Shown one piece after another: positions 26,960 to 45,762 of a stretch of 53,515 nt of DNA. Origin of the DNA: Candidatus Magasanikiibacteriota bacterium (GTDB lineage Bacteria; Patescibacteriota; Patescibacteriia; Magasanikbacterales; UBA10003); contig JACROI010000032.1 of the NCBI GenBank assembly GCA_016214465.1, forward strand, positions 1 through 53,515, in the 5' to 3' direction. The notes beneath the pieces are model-generated. The model was given only the letters and a program-made list of their open reading frames with translations. It ran no database searches and had not been told where the DNA came from. Position numbers and translations under genes: made by a program. Numbering within the stretch: the first letter of the stretch is position 1; each line of letters opens with the position of its first letter.

Positions 26960-26962
26960 AAT

Positions 26963-27789: not shown

Positions 27790-28623
27790 ATGGATAAACA
27801 GACAAAAATTGTTTTAGTTATTATTGTTATTTTGGTCATCGGCGGCATTGCCGCGGCCGTAATGGCGACGGTTAAAGAAAAAGGACAGAACGGTGTGCCA
27901 AAATTGGTTTTGGAAATGAATAGTTTTGATTTTGGCGATGTAGCCATGGCTGACGGCAAAATTACAAAAAATGTGAAAATTAAAAATGACGGCAATGGCG
28001 ATTTAAAAATTTCTAAAATTATCACTTCTTGCATGTGCACCGAGGCGTTTTTGGAAGTCGACGGTAGAAAGAGCCCTGCTTTTGGCATGCCCGGGCATGG
28101 CAACGGCCCTCTGTTTTGGTCGGAAATTATCAAGCCCGGTGAAGAAGGCAATTTGGAAATTGTTTTTGACCCTAACGCTCATGGGCCTGACGCGGTCGGG
28201 CCAATTACGAGAAATGTCATCATCACCAGCAATGACGGCGGAGAGAGCGGTTCAACCAAGACGATTACTTTTGACGGCAATGTTGTCAAAGGCGAGGTGA
28301 AAAAGACCGAGCCGGTGAACGTGGACGCGGAAATTTTATCCGTTTCGCAAAGCGGCGTGGAGGTGCGGGTGGCGAAGGTGACAAAACAAGGCGGTAAAAC
28401 AATCGTGGAGTTCACCGCTGACAACCATGCTGTTGATTTATCAACTTTTGATGTTAAAAACCAATCAAGTTTAGCCGGACAACCGGCTAGCAATTATGTG
28501 ATTAAAGATGGTGGCGGAGGCGGGCATCATTTGTCTGCGGAATTGATTTTTAACAAGGAATTGTCAGGCGCGTTGATTATCGGATTTAATAAAAATTTGA
28601 TTTTTAATTTAGTGATTAAATAA
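27790..28623 (+). CDS. DUF1573-domain protein with C-terminal extension
   Basis: An N-terminal TM is followed by FDFGDVAMADGKITKNVKIKNDGNGDLKISKIITSCMCT, which is the DUF1573 signature. Confidence 0.7.
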   Translation: MDKQTKIVLVIIVILVIGGIAAAVMATVKEKGQNGVPKLVLEMNSFDFGDVAMADGKITKNVKIKNDGNGDLKISKIITSCMCTEAFLEVDGRKSPAFGMPGHGNGPLFWSEIIKPGEEGNLEIVFDPNAHGPDAVGPITRNVIITSNDGGESGSTKTITFDGNVVKGEVKKTEPVNVDAEILSVSQSGVEVRVAKVTKQGGKTIVEFTADNHAVDLSTFDVKNQSSLAGQPASNYVIKDGGGGGHHLSAELIFNKELSGALIIGFNKNLIFNLVIK

Positions 28624-29075
28624 TGAAAAATTATTCTCCCTTGGTTTGGGGTTTGGGCGGAGCCATTAGTATTGTCGTTATTTTTTATTTGGTACAGGCC
28701 TGGGGCATGCAAAGCTGGGTTGGGCCGCTGTATCAATTTCAATATAAATGGTATTTTATTGTGCCTTTAATTGTCGGTTTTGGCATTCAGGCCGGATTGT
28801 TTCGGGCTATTCACCTTAAAGCCAAGCGCGGAGGCGGCGGAACCATGGCGGCTTCCGGCGGCGTTTCCACCCTAGCCATGGCTGGTTGTTGTTTGCATAA
28901 TTTTGCCGCGTTGTTGCCGATTTTGGGAATTTCCGGTTTGGCTATTTTTGTTTCCACCTATCAGAGTTATATTTTTTTAGTAAGCATCGTTTTTGTGACC
29001 GGCGGAGTGATTTACATGGTTAGAAAATATCTAAAAATGGATTCGTGTTGCGGTCTTCCAAATAATGAAATATGA
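28623..29075 (+). CDS. Four-TM membrane protein with intramembrane and C-terminal vicinal cysteine pairs
   Basis: It carries AMAGCCLHNFAALLP inside a predicted helix and ...MDSCCGLPNNEI at the C-terminus. The start overlaps the upstream stop (taATGa). Confidence 0.55.
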   Translation: MKNYSPLVWGLGGAISIVVIFYLVQAWGMQSWVGPLYQFQYKWYFIVPLIVGFGIQAGLFRAIHLKAKRGGGGTMAASGGVSTLAMAGCCLHNFAALLPILGISGLAIFVSTYQSYIFLVSIVFVTGGVIYMVRKYLKMDSCCGLPNNEI

Positions 29076-29566
29076 AAAGAAACCTTTTTATCGGCCTTAT
29101 TGTCGTTATTGCAGCTTTGGTTGTTTTTTTAATAATTAAAGGAGTGTCTGAATTTGAGCCTTTGGGCGAAATCGTGCCAATCATGGGCAACAATCATATT
29201 CAAGTTAACGCACCGCACGAACCATACAATTCCAATCCGCCCACTTCCGGGCCACATGCCGAAGATGTTGATTGGGGAATTTATCAAGAAGAAATTCTTG
29301 ATGAAAATGTTATTCATAATTTAGAGCACGGCGGTGTTTGGATTACTTATCAAGATAAAAATAATCAGGAATTAGAAACTAAATTGGAAGAATTGGTGAA
29401 ACAATATAAATCCAAAGTTATTTTATCGCCGCGTTCGGCCAATGATAGTCCCGTCGCCGTTGTTTCCTGGGGACGGATTATGAAATTGAATGATTTTGAC
29501 GCGGAGAAAATAAATAGATTTATCAAGCAGTATAAAAATAAAGGGCCGGAATTTATTCCGGATTAA
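29072..29566 (+). CDS. DUF3105-domain protein (membrane-anchored)
   Basis: PPTSGPHAEDVDWGIYQEEILDENVIHNLEHGGVWITYQ matches the DUF3105 motif (PxSGxH ... HxLEHG). Confidence 0.7.
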   Translation: MKRNLFIGLIVVIAALVVFLIIKGVSEFEPLGEIVPIMGNNHIQVNAPHEPYNSNPPTSGPHAEDVDWGIYQEEILDENVIHNLEHGGVWITYQDKNNQELETKLEELVKQYKSKVILSPRSANDSPVAVVSWGRIMKLNDFDAEKINRFIKQYKNKGPEFIPD

Positions 29567-29568
29567 GT

Positions 29569-30009
29569 ATGTTTTATAAATGGCAGTTTTGGTTGATAGT
29601 CGCTTTGATTATTTTGGGCAGTTTAAGTGTTTATGGTTATTTTAAGGCGATCCCTCCGGTAATAGATAAAAATCAAGCGATTCCCAAAATTGAAATCACG
29701 CCGACTTTTTTTGATTTTGGCAAATTGGATTTTGGCAAAATTGCGGAGAAAATTTTTATCGTGAAAAACATTGGCCAACAAGTTCTGGAAATTAAAAGAG
29801 TAACCACTTCTTGCAGTTGCACCTCTGCTCAAGTCAGCAAAGAAACCATTAATCCTGGCGAAGAAGCGGAATTGCAAGTGCGCTATGACACGGCGGCCAT
29901 GGGTTCTGGTTCGCACGGCAAAGGCCAGCAAGACCGGATTATTTACATTAAAAGCAGCGACCCAACGCGTCCGCAAGTGGAAATAATCATCAGCTCTTTT
30001 GTCAAATAA
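29569..30009 (+). CDS. DUF1573-domain protein
   Basis: FDFGKLDFGKIAEKIFIVKNIGQQVLEIKRVTTSCSCTSAQV. Confidence 0.7.
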   Translation: MFYKWQFWLIVALIILGSLSVYGYFKAIPPVIDKNQAIPKIEITPTFFDFGKLDFGKIAEKIFIVKNIGQQVLEIKRVTTSCSCTSAQVSKETINPGEEAELQVRYDTAAMGSGSHGKGQQDRIIYIKSSDPTRPQVEIIISSFVK

Positions 30010-30015
30010 TTATTT

Positions 30016-30717
30016 ATGATACCATCTTTTATCACGCTTTCTCCAGCTACTGCCGTTCCTTTGATTGCTATTACAGGTTTTATTGACGGCATTCATCCAT
30101 GCGCCATTGCCATTTTGGTTTTTTTTATTGCTTTTTTGCTCACGCTTCAGCGTAGTTTTAAGAAAATTTTTGCTTTGGGAATGGTTTATGTTTTTGTTAT
30201 TTTTTTGACTTATTTGGCCATTGGCGTGGGTCTGCTTTCCGGCATAATGTTTTTTGGACAACATCATTTTTTTGCTAAGGTTGGTTCATGGCTGTTGATT
30301 TTGTTGGGTCTGTTTAATTTGCGCGATATTTTTTTGCCACAATTGAAATTAGGCATAAAATTGCCGCGCGTTTCCAATGATAAAATTCGCGAACTTTTAT
30401 CAACCGCCACTTTTCCTACAGTAGCAATTGCCGCTTTTTTAGTCGGACTTTGTTCCGTGCCTTGTTCAGGTGGAATTTACGCCGCCATCACCGCTCTTTT
30501 GGCCTCACAAACATCATTTTTTACAGGTTTCCTCTATTTACTGCTTTACAATTTTATGTTTGTGTTGCCGTTAATAATTATTTTGGCCATTTCCACCAAT
30601 CCTTACACTTTGGTTAAATTGGGCGATTGGCAACAAAGAAACAAAAAAAGCCAAAAAATTATTATGGGTGTTGCTATGATAATTTTAGGCGCTGGAATTT
30701 TAATTTTTATTGTTTAA
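30016..30717 (+). CDS. CcdA/DsbD-family thiol-disulfide transmembrane electron transporter
   Basis: Six TM segments are present, with one Cys in each half ([13 protein letters not shown] and [14 protein letters not shown]). Confidence 0.7.
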
Positions 30718-30721
30718 AGAT

Positions 30722-30949
30722 ATGTATAATATGATAGGCTATGGCGCCGGCGCTTGGGGTGGCTGGATTTTTATGATTTTATTTTGGATTTTAGTGATTC
30801 TCGGCGTGGCGGCTTTAATCAAATGGCTTTCTGGCAATGCTTTGGGCGAGCGCAGAAATTCAGCTTTGGAAATTCTTCAGGAACGATTTGCCAAAGGCGA
30901 GATTGACCAGGCGGAATTCGTTGCCAAAACCAAGATTTTGAAAAAATAA
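30722..30949 (+). CDS. SHOCT-domain small membrane protein
   Basis: One or two TM segments are followed by [22 protein letters not shown] (SHOCT motif). Confidence 0.6.
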
Positions 30950-30967: not shown

Positions 30968-31465
30968 ATGATTGACCAGCAACCAATGCGACAATTTTTA
31001 GACAAAGTGGAAAAATTGAAAAAAGAGCATCAGTGGGATTTGTCATCTGATGAAGATTTGTCCATTGCCGTGATGAATTTGGTAAGTTTGGAAGAACATT
31101 TTTTCTTTACCGGCGCCAAAACCGGCAAAGGAGAATACTATGATTTGCTGACGCAGGTGAGGGAAGTGCGGAAAGATTTATTAAAAAAAATTGTGAAAGA
31201 ACCGGAAGGGGAAGTGTGGTGCATTTCCAAACATCTTTTGGCCGCGAGCATGCGATTGATTGAGGTGGGTACGAAATTATTAAATCAAAAAAGAAAAGAG
31301 GACGCCGAGGAATTATTTACCAAGGCCTATAATTTGTATTCTTTATTTTGGGGACTTAATTTAAAAGTGGTACCATTGGGCGACATTAAGAAAAAAGAAG
31401 ACAACGAGTTAACCGGCAAATTAGACGATTTAGTTGAAAAATTAATTGATTGTTGTAAAGAATAA
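30968..31465 (+). CDS. Cytoplasmic helical hypothetical protein ending in ...IDCCKE
   Basis: The ORF has good coding character and no TM. A vicinal Cys pair sits near the C-terminus. Confidence 0.5.
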   Translation: MIDQQPMRQFLDKVEKLKKEHQWDLSSDEDLSIAVMNLVSLEEHFFFTGAKTGKGEYYDLLTQVREVRKDLLKKIVKEPEGEVWCISKHLLAASMRLIEVGTKLLNQKRKEDAEELFTKAYNLYSLFWGLNLKVVPLGDIKKKEDNELTGKLDDLVEKLIDCCKE

Positions 31466-32697
31466 TGCATGCTTTTATGAGAAAGAGCGGGCATAAGAAT
31501 GAACAACCGCCAACGAAAGAAGAAATAAAAAGTAATTATAATTTTGTTTATCGTCCATTTTTATTGGCGTTGGTGTCTTTAGTAGTTTTGGTTGTTCCAA
31601 AAACCGTTTCTGCCGCAGAAAATTTCACTCCAACAGAAAAGTCATTTTTAGCCAAAGTAATGGCAGTGGTGGGAGAACAAAAAAAGATAGACGGAAATGG
31701 CAAAGAGTATGCAGTTCAGGCCTTGAAATTAAAAGGATTGGAAGGGGAATGGAAAGATAAAGAAATAAATTATAATAGTCAAAATTTGTCGGCGGATATT
31801 ATTGGTTTGCCGGCTTTTAAAGTCGGGGATAAAGTGGTGGTAAATAGAAATGTTGATAAAGAGGATAGAGAAACTTTTTATATCACTGATTACGCGCGCA
31901 CTGGCAGGTTGTATTTTTTGTTGGCGCTTTTTTTCGGTTTAGTTATTCTTATCGGCAAAAAACAAGGTGGCAAAGCGATTATCGGCTTGGTGTTCACTTT
32001 TTTTGTCTTGATGAAGTTTATTATTCCGCAGATACTTGACGGAGCAAATCCGATTATGATTAGCATTATTGGCTCGTTCGTTATTCTCGTGGTATCATTA
32101 TATTTAGTGCATGGCTTTAACGCCAAAACCAGCGTAGCTTTGGCCGGAACTTTTTTAAGTTTGGCATTTACTGGAATTTTATCTTTTGTATTCGTTCAAT
32201 TTACTCGCTTAACAGGCTTTGGCGACGAGAGTGCGGCTTTTTTGGTAAACACAGGACAGAATGTCTTGAACATAAAAGGAATCCTCTTGGCCGGCATGAT
32301 TATCGGCGCTCTGGGTGTCTTAGATGATATCACAATTAGTCAAGCATCGGTAGTGGAGCAGATTTATAGAGCCAATGCCAATTTAAGCCCACGGGAAATT
32401 TATCAACGGGCGATGAAAGTGGGCGTGGATCATGTGAGCTCCATTGTCAATACTTTAGTTCTGGCCTATGCCGGAGCATCACTCCCCGTCTTGCTTCTGT
32501 TTTCTCTTGATTCGTCGCTTTCTTTGTCAACCGCGCAAATTATAAATAATGAAATCATAGCCACCGAGATTGTCAGGACCATTGTTGGGAGCATGGGGCT
32601 TGTGGTAGCAGTGCCACTGACTTCGCTTATTGCCGCGTATTTTTTGAAAAATAAAATTTTGCGGCTGGACAGTGGAGCGGCAGAGCATATTCACTAA
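31465..32697 (+). CDS. YibE/F-family membrane protein
   Basis: An N-terminal extracytoplasmic domain is followed by a polytopic region with GKAIIGLVFTFFVLMKFIIPQILDGANP and ...DDITISQASVV..., typical of YibE/F. Confidence 0.65.
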   Translation: MHAFMRKSGHKNEQPPTKEEIKSNYNFVYRPFLLALVSLVVLVVPKTVSAAENFTPTEKSFLAKVMAVVGEQKKIDGNGKEYAVQALKLKGLEGEWKDKEINYNSQNLSADIIGLPAFKVGDKVVVNRNVDKEDRETFYITDYARTGRLYFLLALFFGLVILIGKKQGGKAIIGLVFTFFVLMKFIIPQILDGANPIMISIIGSFVILVVSLYLVHGFNAKTSVALAGTFLSLAFTGILSFVFVQFTRLTGFGDESAAFLVNTGQNVLNIKGILLAGMIIGALGVLDDITISQASVVEQIYRANANLSPREIYQRAMKVGVDHVSSIVNTLVLAYAGASLPVLLLFSLDSSLSLSTAQIINNEIIATEIVRTIVGSMGLVVAVPLTSLIAAYFLKNKILRLDSGAAEHIH

Positions 32698-32721: not shown

Positions 32722-33600
32722 GTGGATTTATTAGTCAGCACATCAATGGTGGCGGCGTTTATTGCTGGTTTGGCGGCGTTGTTTGCTCCGTGTTGCATCA
32801 CTGTCCTGCTGCCATCCTATCTGGCTTCGGTTTTCCGTGAAAAAAGAACGGTTTTTTTAATGACTTTTATTTTCTTTTTGGGAATTCTTTTGGTTTTTCT
32901 GCCGCTCGGTCTGGGAGCGGCGTTTTTTGGGCAATTTTTGAGCAAATACCATAACGCAATTTTTATTGTTGGCGGGGCCTTTTTGTTATTTTCCGGCTTA
33001 GTTTTACTCTTGGGGAAGCATTATTCTTTGCCATTTCACATTAATCCCGCTTTGAAAAATCATCATGCTGTTTCAGTATTTACTTTAGGCATATTTTCCG
33101 GAATCGCAACTACTTGCTGCGCTCCGGTTTTGGCCGGGGTTTTGGCTTTGGCTGTTTTGCCTGGCTCGATTTTTTTGGGCGTGGCTTACACTTTGAGCTA
33201 TGTTCTGGGTATGGTGGCGCCGCTTTTTTTCATTTCCGCTTTTTTGGACAAAACAAACATTACGCGCAAATTCATGGGCACAAGAAAGCGGTTGGAGTAT
33301 TCCCTATTCGGCCGTCGGATTTCAGTGACTATTGCCGAGGTCATTGCCGGCATAATGTTTGTGGCGATGGGTTTATTGACCTCAATTTTGGCTTTCACCA
33401 ATAAATTACAAATGCGCTCGTCTTATCAAATTGATATTAATATTTTTTCCGCTAAGCTGTTCAATGCCATTAGGGCAGTGGTGATAATTATTCCGGAATG
33501 GGCCTGGGGTTTGTTTTTTTTAGCGATTTTAATTGGATTAATTATTAAAGTGTTTTATTTATTTAAAAAAGAAAGGCAAAAATATGGAAAAGAAGAATAA
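32722..33600 (+). CDS. DsbD/CcdA-superfamily-like membrane protein with vicinal Cys pairs in both halves
   Basis: LFAPCCITVLLPSYL lies in TM1 and GIATTCCAPVLAGVL in a later TM. The GTG start at 32722 or the ATG at 32746 are both possible. Confidence 0.6.
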   Translation: MDLLVSTSMVAAFIAGLAALFAPCCITVLLPSYLASVFREKRTVFLMTFIFFLGILLVFLPLGLGAAFFGQFLSKYHNAIFIVGGAFLLFSGLVLLLGKHYSLPFHINPALKNHHAVSVFTLGIFSGIATTCCAPVLAGVLALAVLPGSIFLGVAYTLSYVLGMVAPLFFISAFLDKTNITRKFMGTRKRLEYSLFGRRISVTIAEVIAGIMFVAMGLLTSILAFTNKLQMRSSYQIDINIFSAKLFNAIRAVVIIIPEWAWGLFFLAILIGLIIKVFYLFKKERQKYGKEE

Positions 33601-34240
33601 CACAGCGACGGCGGTTGTTATCACGGCTGTTATCATGTTGATCATATTCGGCTTGGTATTAGCGGCTTTCCGGCAATTTTCACCAAGCGAGCAAAAAAAA
33701 GTAGCCGTTGCCGATGATATGTCTGGCCATCATGGTGGTGGCGCGCAACCAGTGCCGCAAGCTGGCGCGGCTTTGAATGATTTGGTTGGCAAGCCCATGC
33801 CGGATTTTTCTATGACTGATATCAATGGTCGGGAATATACAGCCAAAGATTTACAGGGAAAAAAGATAGTAATGTTTTTTAATGAAGGTCTGATGTGTTA
33901 TCCGGCTTGCTGGAACCAAATAGTGGCGTTGGCAAAAGATGAGCGTTTAAAAAGTGATAACACAGTAGTTTTTTCCGTGGTAGTGGATGCGGCCAAAGAT
34001 TGGCAGAAAGCGATTGACAAGATGCCGGAATTAGGACTGGCGCTGGTTGTTTTTGATAAGAATGCCACTTTAGCTGGCAAATTGGGCTTATTGACAGTTG
34101 CATCATCAATGCACTATGGCTCTTTACCCGGGCACACTTATCTGGTTATTGATAAACAGGGGGTGATTCGGCACATTTTTGACGACCCAAATATGGCTTT
34201 GCATAATGAGCAATTGGTTGAGGAACTGATTAAATTATAA
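33584..34240 (+). CDS. Membrane-anchored redoxin/AhpC-TSA-family thioredoxin-fold protein
   Basis: An N-terminal TM is followed by PMPDFSMTDINGREYTAKDLQGKKIVMFFNEGLMCYPACWNQI (CxxC in redoxin context). Confidence 0.7.
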   Translation: MEKKNNTATAVVITAVIMLIIFGLVLAAFRQFSPSEQKKVAVADDMSGHHGGGAQPVPQAGAALNDLVGKPMPDFSMTDINGREYTAKDLQGKKIVMFFNEGLMCYPACWNQIVALAKDERLKSDNTVVFSVVVDAAKDWQKAIDKMPELGLALVVFDKNATLAGKLGLLTVASSMHYGSLPGHTYLVIDKQGVIRHIFDDPNMALHNEQLVEELIKL

Positions 34241-34262: not shown

Positions 34263-34291
34263 TTGACACTCATACCCCCCTATGGTATAAT
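34263..34291 (+). promoter_or_regulatory. Consensus promoter TTGACA-17-TATAAT with CsoR-type operator ATACC-N7-GGTAT in the spacer
   Basis: ttgaca (34263-34268) and tataat (34286-34291). The inverted repeat atacc cccctat ggtat (34272-34288) carries a C tract. The ATG of csoR lies 7 nt after the -10. Confidence 0.6.
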
Positions 34292-34298: not shown

Positions 34299-34568
34299 AT
34301 GAAGGACGCCATTAAGAAAAATATTCTTCATCGACTAAAAATTATAGAAGGCCAAGTGCGCGGCCTGCAAAAGCTGACTGAGGAAGATACATATTGTGTG
34401 GATATTATTTCACAATCAGCGGCAGTCAAAAATGCCATTTCCGGTATAGAGAATTTAGTGTTGGATAATCATTTGTCCACGCATGTGGTAGAGCAAATAA
34501 AAGCTGGTAAAGAAAATCAAGCGATTAAGGAAATCCTGGCAGTTTATAAGTTATCAAAAAGACGGTAG
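34299..34568 (+). CDS. csoR: CsoR/RcnR-family metal-sensing transcriptional repressor
   Basis: ILHRLKIIEGQVRGLQKLTEEDTYCVDIISQSAAVKNAISGIENLVLDNHLSTHV is present. The family signature R.+GQ..G+ ... C.D...Q..A is met, with Cys and His ligand positions present. Confidence 0.85.
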   Translation: MKDAIKKNILHRLKIIEGQVRGLQKLTEEDTYCVDIISQSAAVKNAISGIENLVLDNHLSTHVVEQIKAGKENQAIKEILAVYKLSKRR

Positions 34569-34602: not shown

Positions 34603-34884
34603 ATGGAAGATGTAAAATGCAATTATTGGCGCTGTGCCAATCGTATCGGGCTATTTTTAGCGATTTTGTTCGTTTTTTGTTTTGTGTTTCATTATTTTCG
34701 TCCGGTGGACGCGGAATTGCGCGTTAAGTTGTTTCAGATGGCTTTTCTCGGCTTTTCCGGCATGAATTTTGCCAGCTTTGTTCTCGGTTTGATTCAAAGT
34801 TATATCTACGCTTATATCGGGTTTGGTTTGTGGTTTTTGGTTGGATGTTGTATTAAAAGCGGAGCGGAGTGTGAGAAGAAATAA
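34603..34884 (+). CDS. Small membrane protein (2-3 TM), hypothetical
   Basis: Hydrophobic helices are present. Cys residues occur near both ends (VKCNYWRC..., ...GCCIKSGAECEKK). Confidence 0.45.
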   Translation: MEDVKCNYWRCANRIGLFLAILFVFCFVFHYFRPVDAELRVKLFQMAFLGFSGMNFASFVLGLIQSYIYAYIGFGLWFLVGCCIKSGAECEKK

Positions 34885-34909: not shown

Positions 34910-35098
34910 ATGGTATTCGGATTATTTAAAAAACACTGCTCCACCTGTGGGATGGATGTTGAAAAAGAAAAAGCGATAAAAAGATTCGGCGAATATTTTT
35001 GTTCAGAAGAACACGCGGAAGGATATCGTCAGAAAATGGCGACAGAAGAGTCAAAAACAGCAAAACAAGGCGGCGGCGGGTGTTGCGGTGGGAAATAA
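34910..35098 (+). CDS. Small YHS/TRASH-like metal-binding protein ending in GGGGCCGGK
   Basis: CSTCGMDVEKEKAIKRFGEYFCSEEH follows the CxxC...FCS pattern of YHS/TRASH domains. The ATG at 34910 is preferred to the long overlapping ORF-track start. Confidence 0.55.
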   Translation: MVFGLFKKHCSTCGMDVEKEKAIKRFGEYFCSEEHAEGYRQKMATEESKTAKQGGGGCCGGK

Positions 35099-35954
35099 AG
35101 ACAGTTATGCGCTGAATGCTGGAAGAAAGTCAAAAGCTTTTGAAATAGGAAAAAAACACTATGACATTGGCAATGATTTGTTCCGCGCCATGCTTGATAA
35201 ACGTTTAACTTATACTTGTGGTTATTGGAAAAATGCCGGGAATTTGGCTGACGCGCAGGAGGCAAAGCTTGATCTGGTTTGCAAAAAAATTGGTCTCAAA
35301 TCAGGACAAAAAATACTTGATATTGGTTCTGGCTGTGGGAGTTTTATGGGTTACGCCGCTGAAAAGTATGGCGTAAGCGCGCTTGGGGTTACTGTTTCAA
35401 ATGAGCAAAAAGAATTAACTGATAAAGTATACAAAAATTTTCCAATAGAAACCAAACTCCAGGATTATCGCAGTATCAATGGAAAGTTTGACCACATTGT
35501 CTCTTTGGGGATGTTTGAACATGTTGGAGCAAAGAACTATAAAGGGTATATGAAAGTCGTTCACAGGTGTCTTAATAATGGCGGTATTTTTCTTCTACAC
35601 ACGATATGGTGCAATAAGTCCGACCAAGTTGGAGACCCATGGTTTGATAAGTATATTTTTCCTGGAGGAAAACTTCCTTCGATAAAGCAGATCGCGGAAG
35701 TCATTGAAGGACTATTTGTGATGGAGGATTGGCAAAATTTTGGAGCTGATTACGATAAAACATTAATGGCGTGGTATAATAATTTTAACGAGAATTGGGA
35801 CAAAATAAAATCAAATTATAATGAAAGATTTCGTCGGATGTGGAGATATTATTTATTAGCTTGCGCGGGGTCATTTCGAGCAAGAAAAAATCAATTGTGG
35901 CAGGTCGTCTTATCCAAAAAAGGAGTTCGGGGAGGGTATCAATCAATTAGATAA
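35088..35954 (+). CDS. Cyclopropane-fatty-acyl-phospholipid synthase (CMAS)-family SAM-dependent methyltransferase
   Basis: HYDIGNDLFRAMLDKRLTYTCGYW...AQEAKLDLVCKKIGLKSGQKILDIGSGCGSF...FDHIVSLGMFEHVG is the CFA-synthase signature. The start is GTG. Confidence 0.75.
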   Translation: MGNKDSYALNAGRKSKAFEIGKKHYDIGNDLFRAMLDKRLTYTCGYWKNAGNLADAQEAKLDLVCKKIGLKSGQKILDIGSGCGSFMGYAAEKYGVSALGVTVSNEQKELTDKVYKNFPIETKLQDYRSINGKFDHIVSLGMFEHVGAKNYKGYMKVVHRCLNNGGIFLLHTIWCNKSDQVGDPWFDKYIFPGGKLPSIKQIAEVIEGLFVMEDWQNFGADYDKTLMAWYNNFNENWDKIKSNYNERFRRMWRYYLLACAGSFRARKNQLWQVVLSKKGVRGGYQSIR

Positions 35955-37961: not shown

Positions 37962-37972
37962 TTGTATAGATT

Positions 37973-38833
37973 ATGCGGTCAAAAGACACTCAATTGAAAG
38001 TTGATCCTGTTTGCGGCATGGATTTGTCCGAATACACGGATGTTGTTGAAATTTTTCATCAAGAAAAAGGGTTTTACTTTTGTGGAAAAGGATGCGAAGA
38101 TAGATTTAAAAAAAATCCAAGCAGATTTCAAGGAGAGCCGCTTATTAAGTTGGATAATATTTGGAAGATTTTTAAGCTTGGTGAGACAGAGACCAAAGTT
38201 CTCACGGGTTTAAATCTTCATATTTGGGAAGGTGATTTTGTGGCCATTATTGGCTCGAGCGGTTCCGGCAAAAGTACCGCTTTAAATATGATAGGTCTTT
38301 TAGATCGGCCGACTTCCGGTCGGATTTTTTTAAATGGCGAAGATGTGTCTTTATTGAACGATGATAAAAGGAATGGACTCCGTTCTAAAACTTTCGGTTT
38401 TGTGTTTCAGCAGTATAATTTAATATCGTGGCTGACTGCCTATGAAAATGTAAATCTTCCGCTTGTCTTCTCCGGAAAAAAAATTGAAATGAAGAAATTA
38501 GAAGCTCGTTTTGAAAAAATGGGCCTGAAAGAGCGTCTGACCCACCGTTCTTTTGAACTTTCCGGCGGAGAACAGCAACGCGTTGCGCTTTTGCGTGCTT
38601 TAGTAAACGATCCGGAAATAATTCTAGGAGACGAGCCGACCGGCAATTTGGATTCAGCAACCGGTAATAAAATTTTAGAAATACTGATTGATTTGAATAG
38701 AAATCGTAAAAAAACGCTCATCATAGTTACCCACGACGCCGATATAGCTGAGAAGGCCGATCAAGTCATTACTTTTAAGGACGGACATTTAGTGCGAGAC
38801 CATCAGGCGCATAAAAAAGCATATACGGAATAA
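37973..38833 (+). CDS. MacB/LolD-type ABC transporter ATP-binding protein with N-terminal YHS domain
   Basis: The YHS motif is DPVCGMDLSEYTDVVEIFHQEKGFYFCGKGCEDRFKKNPSRF. It is followed by Walker A GSSGSGKST, Q-loop, signature LSGGEQQRVALLRAL and Walker B IILGDEPTGNLD. Confidence 0.85.
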   Translation: MRSKDTQLKVDPVCGMDLSEYTDVVEIFHQEKGFYFCGKGCEDRFKKNPSRFQGEPLIKLDNIWKIFKLGETETKVLTGLNLHIWEGDFVAIIGSSGSGKSTALNMIGLLDRPTSGRIFLNGEDVSLLNDDKRNGLRSKTFGFVFQQYNLISWLTAYENVNLPLVFSGKKIEMKKLEARFEKMGLKERLTHRSFELSGGEQQRVALLRALVNDPEIILGDEPTGNLDSATGNKILEILIDLNRNRKKTLIIVTHDADIAEKADQVITFKDGHLVRDHQAHKKAYTE

Positions 38834-38848
38834 ATATCAACAAGAAAT

Positions 38849-40051
38849 ATGCTGAAAAATTTTCTCATTTTAACCTTAAAGAGTATTAGACATCGCTCAA
38901 CCAGAAGTTGGTTGACGATTTTAGGCATTGTCATCGGCATAATGTTGGTAGTCATTATTTTGGCATTAAGTTCCGGTATTAAAAATACGATTGCCGGGGC
39001 ATTGCAGACATTCGGATCGGATTTGATTATAATTTTTCCCGGTAAAGAAAATAATCCCATTGTTGGATTTTTGGCCGGGCAAAAATTCAGAGAGAAAGAT
39101 CTGGTAGATCTTGAGAAAATAAATGGCGTTAAATTCGCCGTACCAATGGGTATTGGCAATTTAAATATTGAACATAATGGAGAAGTAAAATCAACAATGA
39201 TTCATGCCGCCAATTGGAAAAAATATGTAGAGGTATTAGAATCGTCTCAGGGTATTAAGCTTGAGACCGGTCGATGGCCTGAAAATGATGAAGTGTCCGA
39301 GGTAGTTTTCGGCCACTTGGCCGCTAAAACATTTTTTAAAAAAGAAGTGATGGTTGGAGACGAGGTAATTATCAAATCAAAAAGATTTAAGGTTGTTGGC
39401 AATCTTTCCGAAATCGGCGAACAGATGATTGATAATGTTATTTTTGTTTCTTTGGATAGACTTGACAGTTTAACCGATTCTCGCGGCGTTTCCAGCGCTT
39501 TAGTAAAAGTAATGCCAGGAGCGAATATCAATTTGGTGGCCCAGCAAATAAAATTTCAGCTTTCCAAACAAGAAGTCATTCGCGATTTTTCAGTTTTAAC
39601 TCCAGAAAAAGCTGATCGTTTAATTGATAATGTTATTTCAATCGTTGAGTTGGTTTTAATGATCATCGCGTTAGTGTCTTTGGTAGTGGGAGCGGTAGGC
39701 ATTATGAACACTATGTATACTTCAGTTTTGGAACGAACTAAACAGATTGGGGTTATGAAGGCAATCGGTGCTTCTGACGACGCCATTCTCTCGCTATTTC
39801 TGATAGAGTCTGGTTTTATCGGTTTAGTTGGAGGAATTTTAGGAATTTTTTTTGGAATACTTTCGGCGTATTTCATTGGTTTAACTGCCGCTGGCTTCGG
39901 GATTAGAGGATTATTTTCTTTCGCATCATTGGATTTCTTCGGACTTTTTGTCATTTTGTTTCTTACTTTCATTATTGGAGTTCTATCAGGCGTATTGCCT
40001 GCAAAGCAAGCTTCTCGCATGGAGCCGGCTGAGGCATTGCGTTATGAATGA
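38849..40051 (+). CDS. MacB/FtsX-type ABC transporter permease
   Basis: TM1 is followed by a large extracytoplasmic domain and three C-terminal TMs with the GVMKAIGASD motif typical of the FtsX/MacB fold. Confidence 0.8.
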   Translation: MLKNFLILTLKSIRHRSTRSWLTILGIVIGIMLVVIILALSSGIKNTIAGALQTFGSDLIIIFPGKENNPIVGFLAGQKFREKDLVDLEKINGVKFAVPMGIGNLNIEHNGEVKSTMIHAANWKKYVEVLESSQGIKLETGRWPENDEVSEVVFGHLAAKTFFKKEVMVGDEVIIKSKRFKVVGNLSEIGEQMIDNVIFVSLDRLDSLTDSRGVSSALVKVMPGANINLVAQQIKFQLSKQEVIRDFSVLTPEKADRLIDNVISIVELVLMIIALVSLVVGAVGIMNTMYTSVLERTKQIGVMKAIGASDDAILSLFLIESGFIGLVGGILGIFFGILSAYFIGLTAAGFGIRGLFSFASLDFFGLFVILFLTFIIGVLSGVLPAKQASRMEPAEALRYE

Positions 40052-40075: not shown

Positions 40076-42370
40076 ATGAAAAAAGAAGATTTTAAAATAC
40101 AAGGAATGCATTGCGCCAGTTGCGCCACCAATATTGAGAACCTTTCAAAAACCCTACCAGGAGTAAAATCGGTGATTGTTGATTATGCAACGCAAAAAGG
40201 AGTTGTTTCTTTTGACGAAAACATTACAACTGTTGCAGCAATCGGGAAAAGCATCACTGATGCGTTGGGATATAAGATTACCTCCGTAGTGGAAAGAAAT
40301 TTGGAAGAAGAAAATCGTTCCTATCAAAAAGAAATTAAACAGCAAAAAAATTACACAATTTTCTCTTGGCTTGTGGCCATTCCGATTATGCTTGGAACGT
40401 TTCAAGAATATTGGATTTTGAGTTCATTTGTGCCGGTATTTTTAGCAAATAGTTATGTATTATGGCTATTAACTACGCCTTTAATGCTTGGGCCCGGACG
40501 GCAATTTTTTATCGGCACTTATCGCGGATTGAAGCATGGTTTTACAGATATGAATCTTTTGGTTTCCACAGGCACTGGCGCGGCCTATCTGCTTGGTGTA
40601 GTTAATACACTTTTCCCCAACCTTGGCTTTGGTGGCAGTGAAGTGGCCTTTTTCGAAACTGCAGCTCTTTTGATCGCTTTTCTTGTTTTAGGGCGATATC
40701 TTGAAGTTTTAACCAGAGGAAAGGCATCCGAAGCAATTAGAAAATTAATGGGATTAAAGGTAAAAATTGCCAGAGTAATTCGAAATGAAGTTGAACAAGA
40801 AATTTCCATAGAAGAAATTATCGTTGGCGATTTGATTGTGGTGAAGCCGGGGGAAAAATTTCCGGTGGATGGCGTTATTCGATTCGGTTATTCGGCGGTG
40901 GACGAATCCATGATTACAGGAGAGAGTATCCCGGTTGAAAAAAAAGAAAACGACACGATTATCGGCGCCACCATCAATTTAACTGGCCTTATTAAATTTG
41001 AGGCGACAAAAATTGGGAAAGACACGATGCTTTCTCAAATTATTAAATTTATTGAAGACGCCCAGTTGGCTAAACCAAAAATTCAAAAATTAGCCGATAA
41101 AGTTTCCGGCAATTTTATTTTAATTATTCATATTTTAGCTCTTTTTGTCTTTTTATTTTGGTTTTTTGTCGGATATGATATTTTCTTTACACCAGGAAGT
41201 CAATTTTTGCTTTCCAGCATTTCTTTGTCTTCGGTGCCAATTTCAGTTTTTGCCGTATTACTGAGCATAACGGTATTGATTATTTCCTGTCCTTGCGCCG
41301 TAGGATTAGCCACTCCAAGCGCTATTGCGGCCGGCACGGCTAAGGGAGCGGAATATGGGATTTTAATAAAAGGAGGGGATGCCTTGGAGCGCGCCTCAAA
41401 AGTTAATACAGTGGTTTTGGATAAAACTGGAACTTTAACTAAAGGTAAACCTGCGGTAACGGACATCCTGAATGTCGGATCATTGGATTCCAATCAAATA
41501 TTACAGATAGCCGCTTCAGCTGAAAAAGGTTCCGAACATCCTTTGGGCGAAGCCATGGTCAAAAACGCGCTAGAAAAAAATCTTGTCCTTAGTCCGATAG
41601 ACCATTTCCAAGCCATTCCCGGTCATGGCATTGAAGTGATAATTGACGGAAAGAAAATTTATTTGGGTAATCGCCAATTAATGAGTATTCAAAAAATAAC
41701 CATAAGTGATTTTGTTGAAGAGAAGATGCAAAAGCTTGAAGAAGACGGCAAAACGGCAATGATTTTGGCAGTAGATGGAACAATTGAAGGATTGATTGCC
41801 GTGGCTGACACATTAAAAGAGAATTCAGCTGCAGCAGTTTCTGCTTTGCAAAAAATGGATTTTGAAGTGTTGATGATCACAGGCGATAATTGGCGCACTG
41901 CGGAAGCCATTGCCAAACAGATAGGCATTCAAAATGTGCTAGCTGGAGTGTTGCCTGAAAATAAAGCGTTAGAGGTAAAAAAATTACAAGAACAAGGCAA
42001 AGTAGTAGCAATGGTTGGTGATGGCATTAATGATGCGCCGGCTTTAACGCAAGCGGATGTCGGCATTGCGATTGGAAGTGGCTCTGATATTGCCAAAGAA
42101 GCTGGACAGATAGTATTGGTGAAAGAAGATTTAAGAGACATCATCAATGCGTTTGAATTAAGCAAAAAAACGATGAGGAAGATAAAAGAAAATCTTTTTT
42201 GGGCGTTCATATATAATGCGCTTGGGGTGCCTTTGGCTGCTGGTGTATTATATCCGTGGTTTAAGTTCTTAGTCAGTCCGGAATTGGCGGCTTTGTTTAT
42301 GGCCTTTAGTTCTGTTTCGGTAACGTTAAATACACTGCTTTTAAAACGGTATAAATTTAAATATATATGA
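40076..42370 (+). CDS. copA: Copper(I)-translocating P1B-type ATPase
   Basis: HMA domain [14 protein letters not shown] motif [12 protein letters not shown] (CPC), phosphorylation site DKTGTLT, hinge GDGINDAP, and MxxSS in the last TM. Confidence 0.88.
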
Positions 42371-42570
42371 AAAATGCGCCCAAAAATTTTTTTATTATTT
42401 CTCTTGCATTAGCCGGTTTTTTTAGTTTTTTGTTTATTTTAACAGCTAATAATCAAAGAGGAGTTGAAAAATTTGACATATACTTGGGAATGATATGGAT
42501 TTTCGTTTTATCATTTATTGTTGCCTTATCCTTAGCGCATATGTTTAAAAAAGATAAACAAAATGAATAA
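42367..42570 (+). CDS. Small membrane protein (2 TM), hypothetical
   Basis: Two hydrophobic helices are present. The start overlaps the copA stop (ATGA). Confidence 0.45.
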
Positions 42571-42592
42571 AAAGAGAATAAATTGAGATAGT

Positions 42593-43291
42593 ATGCAATA
42601 CGCTTGGCTAATTTGGAGTTTACTATTAATAATAATCTGGCTCATGGTTTATTTTTCACTGAACGGCAAATATAAAAAGCGTGAGATGTTGATTGTGAGT
42701 TTGTGGACATCCGCCATTGGTCTTACTGAACCACTATTTGTTCCTGAATATTGGAGTCCACCGTCTCTTTTTAATTTAGCGTTACGCACTGGTTTTGATA
42801 TTGAAAGTCTTATTTTTTCATTTGGCATTGGCGGGATTGCGGTTATAATTTATGAACTGATTTTTAAAACAAAACATGAAAAAATCAGCTCTCATGAACG
42901 GCACTCGCTACACCATCGCTATCATTTGGTAGCGCTTCTTTCCGCGCCGATCATTTTTTTCTTGCTTCTTGTAATAACTTCTATCAATCCAATCTATATT
43001 GCGATAATCGCAATGACTGGCGGCGGGTTGTTTCCATGGTATTGCCGTCCCGATTTAAAGAAAAAAATGATCACCAGCGCGGTAATATTTTTAGGGATAT
43101 ATTTTGTATATTTTCTTACGCTTATTGCTATGTATCCGGGTTATGTGGAAAAAGTTTGGAATTTAAAAGTTATTTCTGGAATTTTGATTCTCGGAGTTCC
43201 CTTTGAGGAACTACTGTTTGCACTAAGTTTTGGCTTTATTTGGTCTAGTGTATACGAACATTTAACATGGCGTAAAATAAAGACAGTATGA
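42593..43291 (+). CDS. Polytopic membrane protein, hypothetical
   Basis: About 6 TM helices are present. No motif was recognised with confidence. Confidence 0.5.
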   Translation: MQYAWLIWSLLLIIIWLMVYFSLNGKYKKREMLIVSLWTSAIGLTEPLFVPEYWSPPSLFNLALRTGFDIESLIFSFGIGGIAVIIYELIFKTKHEKISSHERHSLHHRYHLVALLSAPIIFFLLLVITSINPIYIAIIAMTGGGLFPWYCRPDLKKKMITSAVIFLGIYFVYFLTLIAMYPGYVEKVWNLKVISGILILGVPFEELLFALSFGFIWSSVYEHLTWRKIKTV

Positions 43292-43372
43292 AACAAAAAA
43301 AGAGATTGATCAAATAATTCAAAATATTATCAATAACGTGAAATAAATTTACGCAGAGTAAATAATAAAAAT

Positions 43373-44341
43373 ATGGAAGGAAAACCTCTAATTATTCAAA
43401 ATGGCAATAAGTTCCAGTTATACACCTACAAGTCAGAGAAAGAGCTGGAAAATATAGTGACTCAATATACCGCAGAAATATTCGGGAAAGATTCTGTTTA
43501 TATTAATTTAAAAAGGAAAATAACCAGTGTTAAGGGCATTTCAGGAATACCCGATGGATTTGTGTTAGATTTTGAAAGAAAAAAACTCTTTATAGTTGAA
43601 GTTGAGTTGATCTCACACCATATTATTGACCACATTACAAGACAGCTCCTTTGTTTCAAGATTGCCATGAATAACCCTGAACTCAAGGATAAACTGGCGC
43701 AAGAATTTTATGAAAAAATTATTAGAGATGATTTAAAAAAAGAAATAACCTTACTTGATGTTCAGAATATTATAGGAAAAAATTTTGGGATAGCAATATT
43801 AATTGATAATATTTCGGAACAGCTGGTTGAAATAGTTAATATGCTTTCACAAGACGGGACAGATGTATTAGCTATTCCGTTTGAAATGTATATAGATCAA
43901 AAAAGTAATAAAATTTTTAAATTTACTACTTTCACAAAGACGGCTCTTGAGAAAGAATCAAAAAAATGGACTTTCAAGTGGACTACGGTTCCGCTCGAGA
44001 AACATCTTGAAAAAGGTGAAAATAATCTCGAAAAAATCTTTTCACTATTGAATTCAGAAATCTGCTCTATCGCGGGTGTGTCTCAAAAATCAAGAAAAAA
44101 TTGGGTGACTTATCAAACATCCCCTTTAAAAAATTTTTGTACTATCAAATTTCTTCCAGATTCTTTAGAAGTTAACTTAAAATGCAATCATCAATTTCAG
44201 GACGAGAAAGATATTTCAAAAACGATAAAACGAACTCCTTCTTGGACATTTGATAGAGTATTTAATGTAAGGTCAGAAAATGAAGTTGAATACGCAATGT
44301 ACCTGATAAGACAAGCCCACAGGTGCATTTGTGATAAGTAA
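43373..44341 (+). CDS. Hypothetical protein with PD-(D/E)xK nuclease-like N-terminal motif
   Basis: GIPDGFVLDFERKKLFIVEVELISH resembles a D...E.E/K restriction-endonuclease-fold core. The C-terminal half is unassigned. Confidence 0.45.
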   Translation: MEGKPLIIQNGNKFQLYTYKSEKELENIVTQYTAEIFGKDSVYINLKRKITSVKGISGIPDGFVLDFERKKLFIVEVELISHHIIDHITRQLLCFKIAMNNPELKDKLAQEFYEKIIRDDLKKEITLLDVQNIIGKNFGIAILIDNISEQLVEIVNMLSQDGTDVLAIPFEMYIDQKSNKIFKFTTFTKTALEKESKKWTFKWTTVPLEKHLEKGENNLEKIFSLLNSEICSIAGVSQKSRKNWVTYQTSPLKNFCTIKFLPDSLEVNLKCNHQFQDEKDISKTIKRTPSWTFDRVFNVRSENEVEYAMYLIRQAHRCICDK

Positions 44342-44358
44342 AATTAAACAAATTGAAT

Positions 44359-45762
44359 ATGAATAGATATAATTTAATAATCATCGGCGGAGGAGCAGGC
44401 GCATTTGCGGCCGCTATCCGCGCCAACGAGCTGAAAGCCAAAACGGCGATCGTGAACGCAGGGCTTCCGATCGGTGGCACTTGCGTCAATGTCGGATGCG
44501 TGCCGTCAAAAATACTTCTCTATGCCGGTGAAGTTTTGCACCACGCCAAACATCACGGCATTCCCGGTGTTGAGCTTGAAGTGAAGAATTTTGATTTTCA
44601 AAAAGTCGTGCAAGACGAACTCTCGCTGGTGGAAAAATTGCGTCAAGAAAAATACGAAAAAGTACTAAAAAATTTAGAGTATGTAACGCTCGTTGAGGGA
44701 AAGGCAAAATTTGTTTCTCAAAACGAGGTGGAAGTGAACGGCGAAAAATTGATTGCGGAAAAATTTATTATCGCCACGGGTTCCACCGCCAATGTGCCAT
44801 CGATTGAAGGTATCCACGAAGTCGGATTTGTTACGCACATTGGAGCATTCCGCCTTGAAAAACAACCGAAAGAATTAGTCGTTATCGGTGCAGGCCCAGT
44901 CGGTTTGGAATTTGCACAAACGTTCAGCCATTTTGATACAAAGGTAACTGTTTTACAACGTGGAGATTCAATTTTTCCGCACTCCGAAAAAACGCTTACC
45001 GACCGACTAGCCGAAGTGTTGACAAAAGAAGGAATCACTATCAAGACGAATGTTGAAGTGAAAAGCGCGCAAAAGGGAAACGATAAAAAAATAATCTCGT
45101 ATCTTATAAATGGAAAATCGGAGGAAGTATCGGGCGATGAAATACTTTTAGCGGCAGGCAAAACACCCAACACGCAAGAACTTGGTCTTGATGTAGTTGG
45201 TGTTGAAATAAGCAAACAGCAGGCAGTTGTCGTCAATCAGTATTTCCAAACTTCAAACAAAAATATTTTTGCAGTCGGTGATGTTACCAACGCTCCCGTG
45301 CGTCTTGAGACAACCGCCGGACGCGAGGGCACGCTTGCCGCTGAAAATGCGCTCAAAGGCACGCAATTGTTTATTGATTACAATACAGTGCCTTACGCTA
45401 TTTTTACCGACCCACAGCTTGCTGGTGTTGGTTTTACCGAAGACGAGCAAATGAAACAAATGGGAGTTTGCGCCTGCCGAACTGTTTCGTTTGCCGATGT
45501 TCCTAAGGCGATCATCATACATCGCACCGAGGGAATGATAAAAATGGCGATTCATCCGCAAACAAAACAAATTCTCGGCGTGCATATTCTCGCGCCAAAT
45601 GCGAGCGAGCTTATCGCCGAGGCGATGATGCTCGTCAAGAACAAAAATACAATTGACGATGTGGTCAATTCTCTCCCAATGTTCCCGACACTTTCCGAGG
45701 CGATTAAAATTGTGGCATTATCTTTTATCAAAGACATTAGTAAATTAAGTTGTTGTATATGA
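44359..45762 (+). CDS. merA: Mercuric reductase-like pyridine nucleotide-disulfide oxidoreductase (no NmerA domain)
   Basis: FAD motif IIIGGGAGAFAAA, redox-active GGTCVNVGCVPSK, NAD motif VIGAGPVGLEFA, and a C-terminal vicinal pair ...ISKLSCCI, as in the MerA C-terminal Hg-binding CC. Confidence 0.7.
   Translation: MNRYNLIIIGGGAGAFAAAIRANELKAKTAIVNAGLPIGGTCVNVGCVPSKILLYAGEVLHHAKHHGIPGVELEVKNFDFQKVVQDELSLVEKLRQEKYEKVLKNLEYVTLVEGKAKFVSQNEVEVNGEKLIAEKFIIATGSTANVPSIEGIHEVGFVTHIGAFRLEKQPKELVVIGAGPVGLEFAQTFSHFDTKVTVLQRGDSIFPHSEKTLTDRLAEVLTKEGITIKTNVEVKSAQKGNDKKIISYLINGKSEEVSGDEILLAAGKTPNTQELGLDVVGVEISKQQAVVVNQYFQTSNKNIFAVGDVTNAPVRLETTAGREGTLAAENALKGTQLFIDYNTVPYAIFTDPQLAGVGFTEDEQMKQMGVCACRTVSFADVPKAIIIHRTEGMIKMAIHPQTKQILGVHILAPNASELIAEAMMLVKNKNTIDDVVNSLPMFPTLSEAIKIVALSFIKDISKLSCCI

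Follow-up and report, generated by a model that had tools for sequence, protein, structure and literature searches.

A predicted archaeal-type mercuric reductase gene beside a conserved cysteine-pair-rich gene cluster in a Candidatus Magasanikiibacteriota genome

The stretch of DNA analyzed here (hereafter the window) is 53,515 nucleotides long and corresponds to positions 1 to 53,515 of contig JACROI010000032.1 of a Candidatus Magasanikiibacteriota bacterium (GenBank assembly GCA_016214465.1), a candidate phyla radiation (CPR) member whose assembly comprises 826 kb in 63 contigs and is 97.6% complete. From position 24374 to 48536 every gene is on the + strand. This region contains a long series of genes, many of them for proteins with vicinal cysteine pairs (CC; 24374-42370), about 2 kb of unrelated spacer genes (42367..44341), a mercuric reductase gene (merA; 44359..45762), a dual-specificity-phosphatase (DSP)-like gene (45750..46186) and a gene for a second P1B ATPase (46179..48536). 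An earlier note on this DNA had proposed that the reductase and the neighboring CC proteins form one non-canonical mercury system. Our results favor, as the probable explanation, two systems lying side by side: a conserved cluster for copper-like metals and thiol chemistry (24374-42370) and the remnant of a mer operon (44359-46186). Family membership, conservation, synteny, gene fusions and homology are the observations on which this is built; from them we propose the metal substrate, the direction of transport and a possible link between MerA and p150, a four-helix membrane protein of the cluster.

The reductase (open reading frame (ORF) 44353/44359-45762) contains the redox motif CVNVGC and the C-terminal LSCCI that had first suggested MerA. 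It scored 513.5 bits with the NCBIfam equivalog model TIGR02053 (cut-off 454.45; 513.8 bits in the genome search), and its closest solved structures were the MerA entries 5x1y and 4ywo, with a full-length match to the latter (E 3.9e-98). Residues were numbered according to RC607, transferred through a Bacillus cereus plasmid MerA, and window positions refer to the 467-amino acid (aa) form. The redox pair C207/C212 corresponds to C42/C47 in the window protein, the C-terminal vicinal pair C628/C629 to C465/C466 and Y264 to Y99, and position 605 is F442. In the portion of Christakis et al. (2021; PMC8261052) on which we draw, MerA is characterized by Tyr264 and by Tyr (bacterial) or Phe (archaeal) at position 605, Phe605 being the archaeal state that is also found in 46 bacterial homologues, and CPR MerA is sister to the MerA of Thermococci and Archaeoglobi. 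F605 was common to all 10 CPR MerA proteins, and the nine others shared the full residue set. On the other hand, Y264 and the C-terminal CC were missing from 13 of 13 aligned non-MerA reductases (12 flavoprotein reductases of the same class and one archaeal dihydrolipoamide dehydrogenase). A maximum-likelihood tree of 26 rows, from which fragmentary Bacillus and Thermococcus pieces were omitted, placed the 13 MerA rows in one clade apart from the 13 other reductases (support 96/95). Phylogeny and the MerA-specific Tyr, the checks that the earlier note had suggested for this enzyme, thus both came out in favor of MerA.

By every sequence test, the window reductase is a genuine MerA of the core, archaeal type, which lacks an NmerA domain, and Hg(II) reduction is its predicted activity. 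The frame is intact and the catalytic residues are all retained; the nearest MerA (84% identity) belongs to a genome of another family. No essential difference was observed from the archaeal-type core MerA of Metallosphaera sedula (4ywo) or from the CPR MerA clade. As judged from family membership, Hg(II) would be taken up by the C-terminal Cys465/Cys466 arm, then handed to the redox-active Cys42/Cys47 beside FAD and reduced with NAD(P)H to volatile Hg(0). The best plasmid relative was found on a Thermococcus peptonophilus plasmid (locus L124; 44.7% identity), where the annotation splits MerA into two overlapping FAD-dependent oxidoreductase pieces; an HMA gene and a YHS-domain gene come before it, in a layout that resembles the TRASH-linked mer genes of Sulfolobus.

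The region had also been described as unusually dense in CC motifs, and this was borne out. All of the quoted motifs were recovered in ORF translations: two CC in p150 (28623-29075), CEFCCG in 25870-26619, DCCKE at the end of 30968-31465, CC in both halves of 32722-33600, GCCIKS in 34603-34884, GGGGCCGGK at the end of 34910-35098 and MSCCGG at the start of 35981-36184; an extra CC was present in the N-terminal DSP fragment (45750-45971). The 26 proteins of this island (6,488 aa) contain 10 vicinal pairs, compared with 1.36 +/- 1.14 after residue shuffling inside each protein (0 of 5000 shuffles reached 10) and with 0.82 expected from the rate in the rest of the genome (Poisson P ~2e-8), a rate that rests on crude greedy ORF calls (871 ORFs of at least 60 aa with 40 CC), some of them spurious. 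The enrichment is therefore about 8-12-fold. The fraction of Cys was 1.09% in the island and 1.01% in the genome, that is, not raised, so the enrichment is of pairing and not of cysteine itself.

The conserved cluster was compared with related loci (when species genomes were scanned with the p150 alignment, 350 loci were obtained, of which 80 were kept as the basis of all counts out of 80). Its first two genes encode a BlaI/CopY-family winged-helix repressor (24374..24757; Pfam Penicillinase_R, E 4.7e-24), which opens the conserved cluster in 12 of the 80 loci, and a BlaR1-like M56 membrane sensor-protease (24759..25805; Pfam Peptidase_M56, E 4.4e-12), the conserved cysteines of which (CGC and others) were kept at most positions in 8-10 of 10 homologues. 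They are followed by two syntenic membrane proteins with cysteines at the C-terminus, namely p249 (25870..26619), which has a CxxCC...CxC motif and a C-terminal Cys tail and belongs to no Pfam or NCBIfam family (only Pfam noise at E<=1), and p117 (26606..26959), which ends in MVGGC and also has no family. In p249, C135, C138, C139, C153 and C155 were present in 24/24 homologues and the terminal Cys in 18/24; the terminal Cys of p117 was kept in 13/13. The next product is a membrane-anchored protein with two thioredoxin-like CxxC motifs (26963..27784; weak thioredoxin matches in Pfam), all four cysteines of which occurred in 18/18 homologues. It precedes a DUF1573 Ig-like protein (27790..28623; Pfam DUF1573, E 8.3e-13), p150 and a DUF3105 protein (29072..29566; Pfam, E 2.1e-30), after which a second DUF1573 protein is found (29569..30009; Pfam, E 1.3e-18); the CxC motif of each DUF1573 protein was conserved in 19/19 homologues. 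Further downstream are DsbD-like233 (30016..30717), which has six transmembrane (TM) helices, C29 and a CxxxC motif (C146 and C150) retained in 28-29 of 29 homologues, and weak SfLAP, ArsG and DsbD matches that are all below cut-off; a small membrane protein with a SHOCT domain (30710..30949; Pfam SHOCT, E 3.2e-7); p165 (30968..31465), a soluble helical protein of no family (only Pfam noise at E<=1) that ends in CC, with C162 and C163 in 10/10 homologues; and a YibE/F-family membrane protein (31465..32697; Pfam, E 1.2e-74).

The DsbD-like protein with CC in both halves (DsbD-CC; 32722..33600) had been suggested as an Hg(II) or Cu(I) relay transporter, which our data do not bear out. It passes the Pfam DsbD_TM model (PF02683; 35 bits, cut-off 27.1), with CC in TM1 and TM4, and is paired in 7 loci with the gene for a membrane-anchored AhpC/TlpA-like thioredoxin-fold partner (33584..34240; Pfam AhpC-TSA, E 2.6e-15), whose CxxxC cysteines were both present in 8/8 homologues. 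This is the arrangement of ordinary reductant relays of the CcdA/DsbD and TlpA/ResA type, which likewise have TM1 and TM4 cysteines and a membrane-anchored thioredoxin-fold protein, although both TM cysteines are doubled in 10 of the 14 relatives and the partner has CxxxC instead of WCxxC. C24 and C132 were found in 14/14 homologues, whereas the extra C25 and C133 were found in 10/14 and were lost together; thus, the extra cysteines are a trait of a subfamily. In two CPR genomes the double-CxxC protein is fused to DsbD_TM (L038:14330-16156 and L040:12598-14511; 608-637 aa), which gives a functional tie between the window genes 26963-27784 and 32722-33600.

The second half of the cluster is headed by a CsoR/RcnR-family repressor (34299..34568; Pfam Trns_repr_metal, PF02583, E 3.8e-24) with the fingerprint C45-H70-H74 (C45 in 13/13 homologues), whose best NCBIfam match was RicR (61 bits, cut-off 175). 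A promoter scan identified a consensus sigma-70-type promoter before it (34263..34291, + strand; 12/12, TTGACA-17-TATAAT with extended TG), and, since this promoter overlaps the listed TTG start of the ORF, the ATG at 34299 is the likely start. Three small CC proteins follow. The CC of p93 (34603..34884; two TM helices, only Pfam noise at E<=1) was not conserved (2/3 and 1/3 homologues). In p62 (34910..35098), a TRASH/YHS-like Cys motif precedes the C-terminal GGGGCCGGK (sub-threshold matches to Metallothio_Pro and the PP0621 family); its CC was kept in 4/4 homologues, and among the small CC proteins it is the only one with a TRASH-like metal-binding motif. For p67 (35981..36184), a tail-anchored protein that starts with MSCCGG, one related cluster could be identified among 1.84 billion representatives; it shares 53% identity with p67 and has both CCGG and the TM tail, but a single relative is too few to judge conservation. 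Between p62 and p67 lies a cyclopropane-fatty-acyl-phospholipid synthase-like methyltransferase (35088..35954; NCBIfam NF008686, 461 bits, cut-off 400; profile positions 103-382 of 383), which was found in 1 of the 80 loci and is therefore not part of the conserved cluster. The last genes encode a MacAB-type tripartite exporter (36267..40051; Pfam and NCBIfam), composed of an adaptor, an ABC ATPase with an N-terminal YHS-like domain (26.1 bits, below the cut-off of 30.3) and a MacB/FtsX permease, and a P1B-1 ATPase of the Cu(I)/Ag(I) type with an N-terminal HMA domain and a CPC motif (40076..42370; TIGR01511, 577 bits, cut-off 397; HMA, E 4.6e-14). Most CC pairs were thus conserved in orthologues, as the earlier note's view of them as functional motifs implied.

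The neighbors of p150 in the 80 loci, counted within the flanks available around each of them, were a P1B ATPase in 39, DUF1573 in 35, DsbD-like233 (next to p150) in 29, p249 in 24, the double-CxxC protein in 21, CsoR in 13, BlaI in 12 and true MerA in one (L091); 10 loci had none of the query proteins nearby. The recurrent order in CPR genomes was BlaI-BlaR-p249-p117-Trx-DUF1573(n)-p150-DsbD-like-(p165)-(YibE/F)-(SHOCT)-(CsoR)-ATPase, and one locus (L064) repeats the window order from BlaI to the ATPase, including the DsbD-CC/AhpC-like pair and p93, without merA. The absence of merA from 79 of the 80 loci and the presence of Cu(I) ATPases and CsoR argue that the cluster is not a mer system. 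The genes and domains that accompany it (Cu(I)-type ATPases, the CsoR family, HMA, YHS and TRASH) point towards copper-like metals and thiol chemistry outside the cytoplasm rather than mercury. The cluster probably deals with thiophilic, copper-like metal ions both at the membrane and across it, and keeps surface thiols reduced. Its parts would be the BlaI/BlaR1-type sensor pair, the two tail-cysteine membrane proteins, the double-CxxC protein, the DUF1573 CxC proteins, p150, two DsbD-like relays with the TlpA/AhpC-like partner, the CsoR-family repressor, the TRASH-like CC protein, the MacAB-type exporter with YHS and the Cu(I) ATPase, and the vicinal cysteines would be conserved working parts of these proteins.

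Within this cluster, p150 (28623..29075; 150 aa) is the protein that may connect to mercury. It matches no Pfam model, and searches of p150 and of the X175 family described below at E<=1 yielded only noise. Its four TM helices carry a mid-membrane Cys89-Cys90-x-His92 site and a C-terminal CC tail; C89, C90, H92 and P99 were invariant in 24/24 sequences, and the C-terminal CC was present in many relatives but not all. An AlphaFold (AF2) model (pLDDT 80.6) showed four long helices, the third of which (74-101) has the CC at its middle, and basic residues after helices 2 and 4 place both termini, by inference, in the cytoplasm. Foldseek found no solved relative of this model in the PDB (best E 1.6); its top matches (V-ATPase c-subunits and designed helical bundles) were taken as generic helix packing. 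In the ESM Atlas the nearest clusters had no Pfam family, and clusters with HMA, HMBD or YHS scored 0.77-0.80, which we regard as leads only. The family occurs in CPR bacteria, Chloroflexota, Nitrospirota and archaea. An N-terminal HMA domain was present on 9 of 43 database relatives, and among the 21 long p150 forms in the 80 loci HMA was found in 6 and YHS plus HMBD in 1. A 290-aa CPR relative has a fused N-terminal rhodanese domain (L040:109-981, - strand), which may mean that some family members are involved in sulfur or persulfide chemistry.

The clearest relative of p150 is X175, a 175-aa membrane protein of no family that follows merA in several CPR loci, with AACSSC as its invariant TM motif and CxxC at the C-terminus. 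The alignment of the two families with hhalign reached 96.1% (E 3.6e-9, 141 columns), and both the TM Cys sites and the C-terminal Cys pairs coincide. On these alignments, p150 is a paralogue of the mer-linked X175. In addition, the p150 family aligned with a 22-sequence MerT profile (71.4%, E 3.6e-5) with the CC pairs in register. MerT has three TM helices and MerF two, and their vicinal CC is in the first TM helix. Like MerT (PF02411) and MerF, p150 carries its invariant CC in a TM helix rich in glycine, after which come an LGxSG-like turn and another helix; its hairpin aligns with MerT TM1-TM2, p150 having a second Cys pair on the predicted cytoplasmic side, and the HMA fusions of some relatives recall MerTP fusions. 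We regard this likeness to the MerT CC hairpin as no more than suggestive. In contrast with MerT, the HMA domain of p150 relatives is N-terminal and probably cytoplasmic, and the genomic company is of the copper type and not mer. Based on the invariant CC, the HMA, YHS and HMBD fusions, the homology to X175 and the weak likeness to MerT, p150 is very probably a membrane carrier of thiophilic metals and is put forward as a candidate for this role. It would bind a soft metal ion at the mid-membrane Cys-Cys-x-His site and exchange it with its own cytoplasmic C-terminal Cys pair (in relatives, with the fused HMA, YHS or HMBD), its usual substrate probably being Cu(I). The idea that CC membrane proteins of the region act as non-canonical relay transporters for Hg(II) or Cu(I) thus finds partial support for the four-TM protein but none for the DsbD-like one.

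The surroundings of merA tell a different story from those of the cluster. The earlier note recognized no mer accessory gene in the window, and this can be extended to the whole genome, in which MerT (PF02411) and MerC (PF03203) gave no match at E<=1 and MerR_1 (PF13411) none at E<=0.1; the sole HMA domain found in the genome was the N-terminus of the CopA-type ATPase, so that a free HMA protein is also lacking. Compared with the Tn21 operon (merR-merT-merP-merC-merA-merD-merE; L121), the central enzyme is the same and both have a thiol relay on vicinal cysteines, but the window genome lacks a MerR-family regulator, MerT, MerC and MerP, and Tn21 MerA has an N-terminal HMA that the window MerA lacks.

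We then compared merA loci in a class sample of 401 genomes. MerA above the cut-off was found in 9 of them, which are spread over different families. An ArsR-family gene lies directly upstream of merA in 8/8 of the other class loci and also in L091, where arsR-X175-merA follows BlaI-BlaR. After X175, several CPR mer loci have a membrane-anchored thioredoxin-fold (TlpA-like) protein with WCxxC and sometimes a CcdA-like protein. In 26 metagenome loci that encode X175, merA was beside it in 16, arsR in 15, the TlpA-like gene in 18 and DSP in 4, and the commonest order was arsR-merA-X175-TlpA. X175 was present in 5/9 MerA genomes and in 10/392 others of the class; one of these ten (L131) has at a contig end a merA fragment 95% identical to that of the window, followed by an intact DSP gene and X175. 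We therefore define the CPR-type mer operon as arsR-merA-(DSP)-X175-TlpA-like. An ArsR/SmtB gene also adjoins a Streptomyces merA (L122), and the arsR directly upstream in the CPR relatives agrees with the ArsR-regulated mer operons of Streptomyces and Sulfolobus. As far as the consulted portion of PMC3466566 goes, ArsR and TRASH proteins (MerH in Sulfolobus) occur in archaeal mer operons, and X175 and the TlpA-like partner are not among the mer functions tabulated there. In contrast with those operons and with all CPR relatives examined, the window merA has no arsR before it, and the TRASH-like p62 is 9 kb away in the CsoR-headed block.

The window genome seems to have lost most of this operon. 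For arsR, the best whole-genome tblastn match had E 0.031, with no match on the window contig; for X175 there was no profile match at E<=1e-8 in the genome, and tblastn reached only the paralogue p150 (E 3.5e-4). What follows merA is the DSP-like gene (45750..46186; CX5R; Pfam DSPc on the C-terminal piece), which is in two frames in the assembly and about nine residues short of the intact 153-aa orthologue that follows merA in L131. One contig of sequencing run X2 has 37 extra letters at 45959/45960, exactly at the break, and, as 37 = 1 mod 3, these bring the two halves into a single frame; a strain variant or an assembly slip may account for the break. The junctions from p322 (the gene before merA) to merA and from DSP to the second ATPase were bridged by contigs from the runs of a single study, possibly with the source sample among them. 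A merA about 90% identical was flanked by different DNA on both sides in two drinking-water runs, and in run X1 the summed depth over merA was several times that of the flanks. We read merA and DSP (44359-46186) as the remnant of a separate, mobile CPR-type mer operon from which arsR, X175 and TlpA are missing. The spacer between this remnant and the cluster (42367..44341) encodes a small membrane protein, a lycopene-cyclase-domain protein and p322, which has no family (only Pfam noise at E<=1) and sits where the relatives carry arsR. The stretch 42000-44341 has the lowest GC content of the window (0.335) and may be a point of insertion or rearrangement.

These results allow the regulatory part of the earlier proposal, namely that CsoR or BlaI replaces MerR, to be reconsidered. 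Judging by the arsR genes upstream of its relatives, this merA lineage natively has an ArsR-type regulator, which the window genome lacks, and nothing was found to support such a replacement. The CopY-box-like operator motif is TACAnnTGTA; it had no match in the whole window (0.24 expected for this CopY/BlaI-type operator).

How Hg(II) would reach MerA in this organism is the point on which the explanations mainly differ. We tentatively propose, and would put it at somewhat below even chances, that p150 and X175 belong to one new superfamily of small, thiol-based soft-metal carriers, with four TM helices and mid-membrane and cytoplasmic C-terminal Cys pairs, which are perhaps very distant kin of MerT. 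X175 and the membrane-anchored WCxxC thioredoxin-like protein would then serve as the Hg(II) capture-and-import arm of archaeal-type, ArsR-regulated mer operons, and p150 would be the counterpart in the copper cluster and a possible stand-in here. p150 is the only candidate in the window genome for a dedicated path of Hg(II) to MerA, yet that it really serves in this way seems doubtful. Otherwise, MerA would act on Hg-thiolates that enter unaided, as is assumed for lineages with merA only in the portion of PMC3466566 considered here. p150 was found in 37 of the 401 class genomes, in 5/9 with MerA and 32/392 without; at the level of loci, a true merA was near p150 in 1 of 80.

The explanation that survives best beside ours, although we consider it rather unlikely, regards merA as a stranded passenger, a recently transferred cassette that has left arsR, X175 and TlpA behind, is expressed by read-through if at all, relies on Hg(II)-thiolates entering without a dedicated transporter and has no functional link to the cluster. 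The lack of any arsR or X175 relative in the genome by tblastn and profile search, the two-frame DSP, the near-identical merA copies in other contexts, the depth of merA above that of its flanks, the patchy spread of MerA and the 84% identity to a genome of another family all agree with it, as does the report, in the portions of PMC8261052 and PMC3466566 used, that early lineages and Archaea often have merA alone without mer transporters. The intact frame and retained catalytic residues of merA speak against such stranding, and the DSP break loses weight if the 37 letters of the X2 contig represent the true sequence. This explanation overlaps with our own and differs from it only on whether p150 serves MerA.

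Several observations weigh against the two-system explanation or the role that it gives to p150 and X175. The match of p150 to the MerT profile spans only 43 columns, X175 reached 31.6% against MerT, and single sequences compared with the p150 family gave 12.9% for Bacillus MerT, 1.7% for Tn21 MerT, 0.1% for MerC and 1.0% for MerF; MerT models failed on p150 (NCBIfam merT_RC607, 16.9 bits, cut-off 130). Unlike MerT and MerF, p150 has four TM helices and its CC is in TM3. If it lacks a signal peptide, an N-terminal HMA domain would lie in the cytoplasm, an arrangement compatible with export and import alike. The occurrence of p150 relatives near true merA in only 1/80 loci means that a role in Hg(II) delivery would be opportunistic. 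Cu(I)-sensing CsoR proteins have the ligand fingerprint Cys-His-Cys, whereas the window protein has C-H-H, and copper is thus not proven as the inducer. The promoter scan before merA gave only weak matches (9-10/12) that overlap the start codon; as merA has neither its own regulator nor a clear promoter, and DSP reads as broken, the module may be decaying. Finally, gene calls in related loci were greedy ORFs, many metagenome loci came from one project and many of their contigs were short, and Fisher values on the class genomes are rough because related genomes are not independent.

The proposal that the whole island is a non-canonical mercury resistance system, in which Hg(II) enters through the CC membrane proteins and is ferried to MerA by the small ones, with CsoR or BlaI in place of MerR, appears improbable. 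MerA is genuine, the CC motifs are conserved, p150 is homologous to X175 and enriched in MerA genomes, and at 4 of the 10 CPR merA loci (the window, L038, L040 and L091) the merA module adjoins parts of the cluster. However, the cluster is found without merA in 79 of 80 loci in the company of Cu(I)-type ATPases and CsoR, the native regulator is of the ArsR type, no TACAnnTGTA box is present, and unrelated genes spanning about 2 kb lie between merA and the cluster. The proposal thus fails for the island as a whole and is partly right for the four-TM protein. It is just as improbable that p150 and X175 are membrane thiol-disulfide oxidoreductases (DsbB/VKOR analogues) that re-oxidize or reduce their TlpA-like or DsbD-like neighbors and carry no metal: DsbD-CC and the AhpC-like gene beside p150 in 7 loci, TlpA with X175 in 18 of 26, the CxxC motifs of X175 and the four-TM bundles of both families would suit this, but HMA, YHS and HMBD were fused to p150 several times, its site is Cys-Cys-x-His and a redox disulfide is poorly formed by vicinal cysteines, X175 stands under ArsR-type metal regulators beside merA, and below E 1.6 Foldseek matched neither DsbB nor VKOR nor any other solved fold.

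With two systems side by side as the probable arrangement, the reductase alone is ordinary, since published work already covers both MerA in CPR bacteria and merA lacking the classical accessory genes. What is added is the proposed p150/X175 superfamily and the layout of the CPR-type mer operon; neither was found described in the full-text searches made or in the portions of PMC8261052 and PMC3466566 consulted, whose supplementary operon tables might list such neighbors. The finding that merA and arsR in CPR genomes are accompanied by X175 and a thioredoxin-like partner provides a lead on how minimal archaeal-type mer systems obtain their substrate, and the sister family p150 is often fused to HMA, YHS or HMBD and located beside copper ATPases. 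If p150 and X175 carry metals, the small set of known thiol-relay metal transporters would be enlarged, and a function would be assigned to part of a conserved Cys-pair-rich cluster of ultra-small bacteria.

Some minor observations concern the genes around X175 and behind the mer remnant. A 147-aa membrane protein with PCCP and GACPAC motifs is located between the TlpA-like gene and X175 in two loci (L036:6939-7382 and L161), and a 62-aa protein with 9 Cys lies between arsR and X175 in another (L136:5404-5592). The second P1B ATPase of the window (46179..48536; TIGR01525, 601 bits) has a Cys/His-rich N-terminus and CPD instead of CPC, and a relative with 67% identity is found near arsR and X175 in L127.

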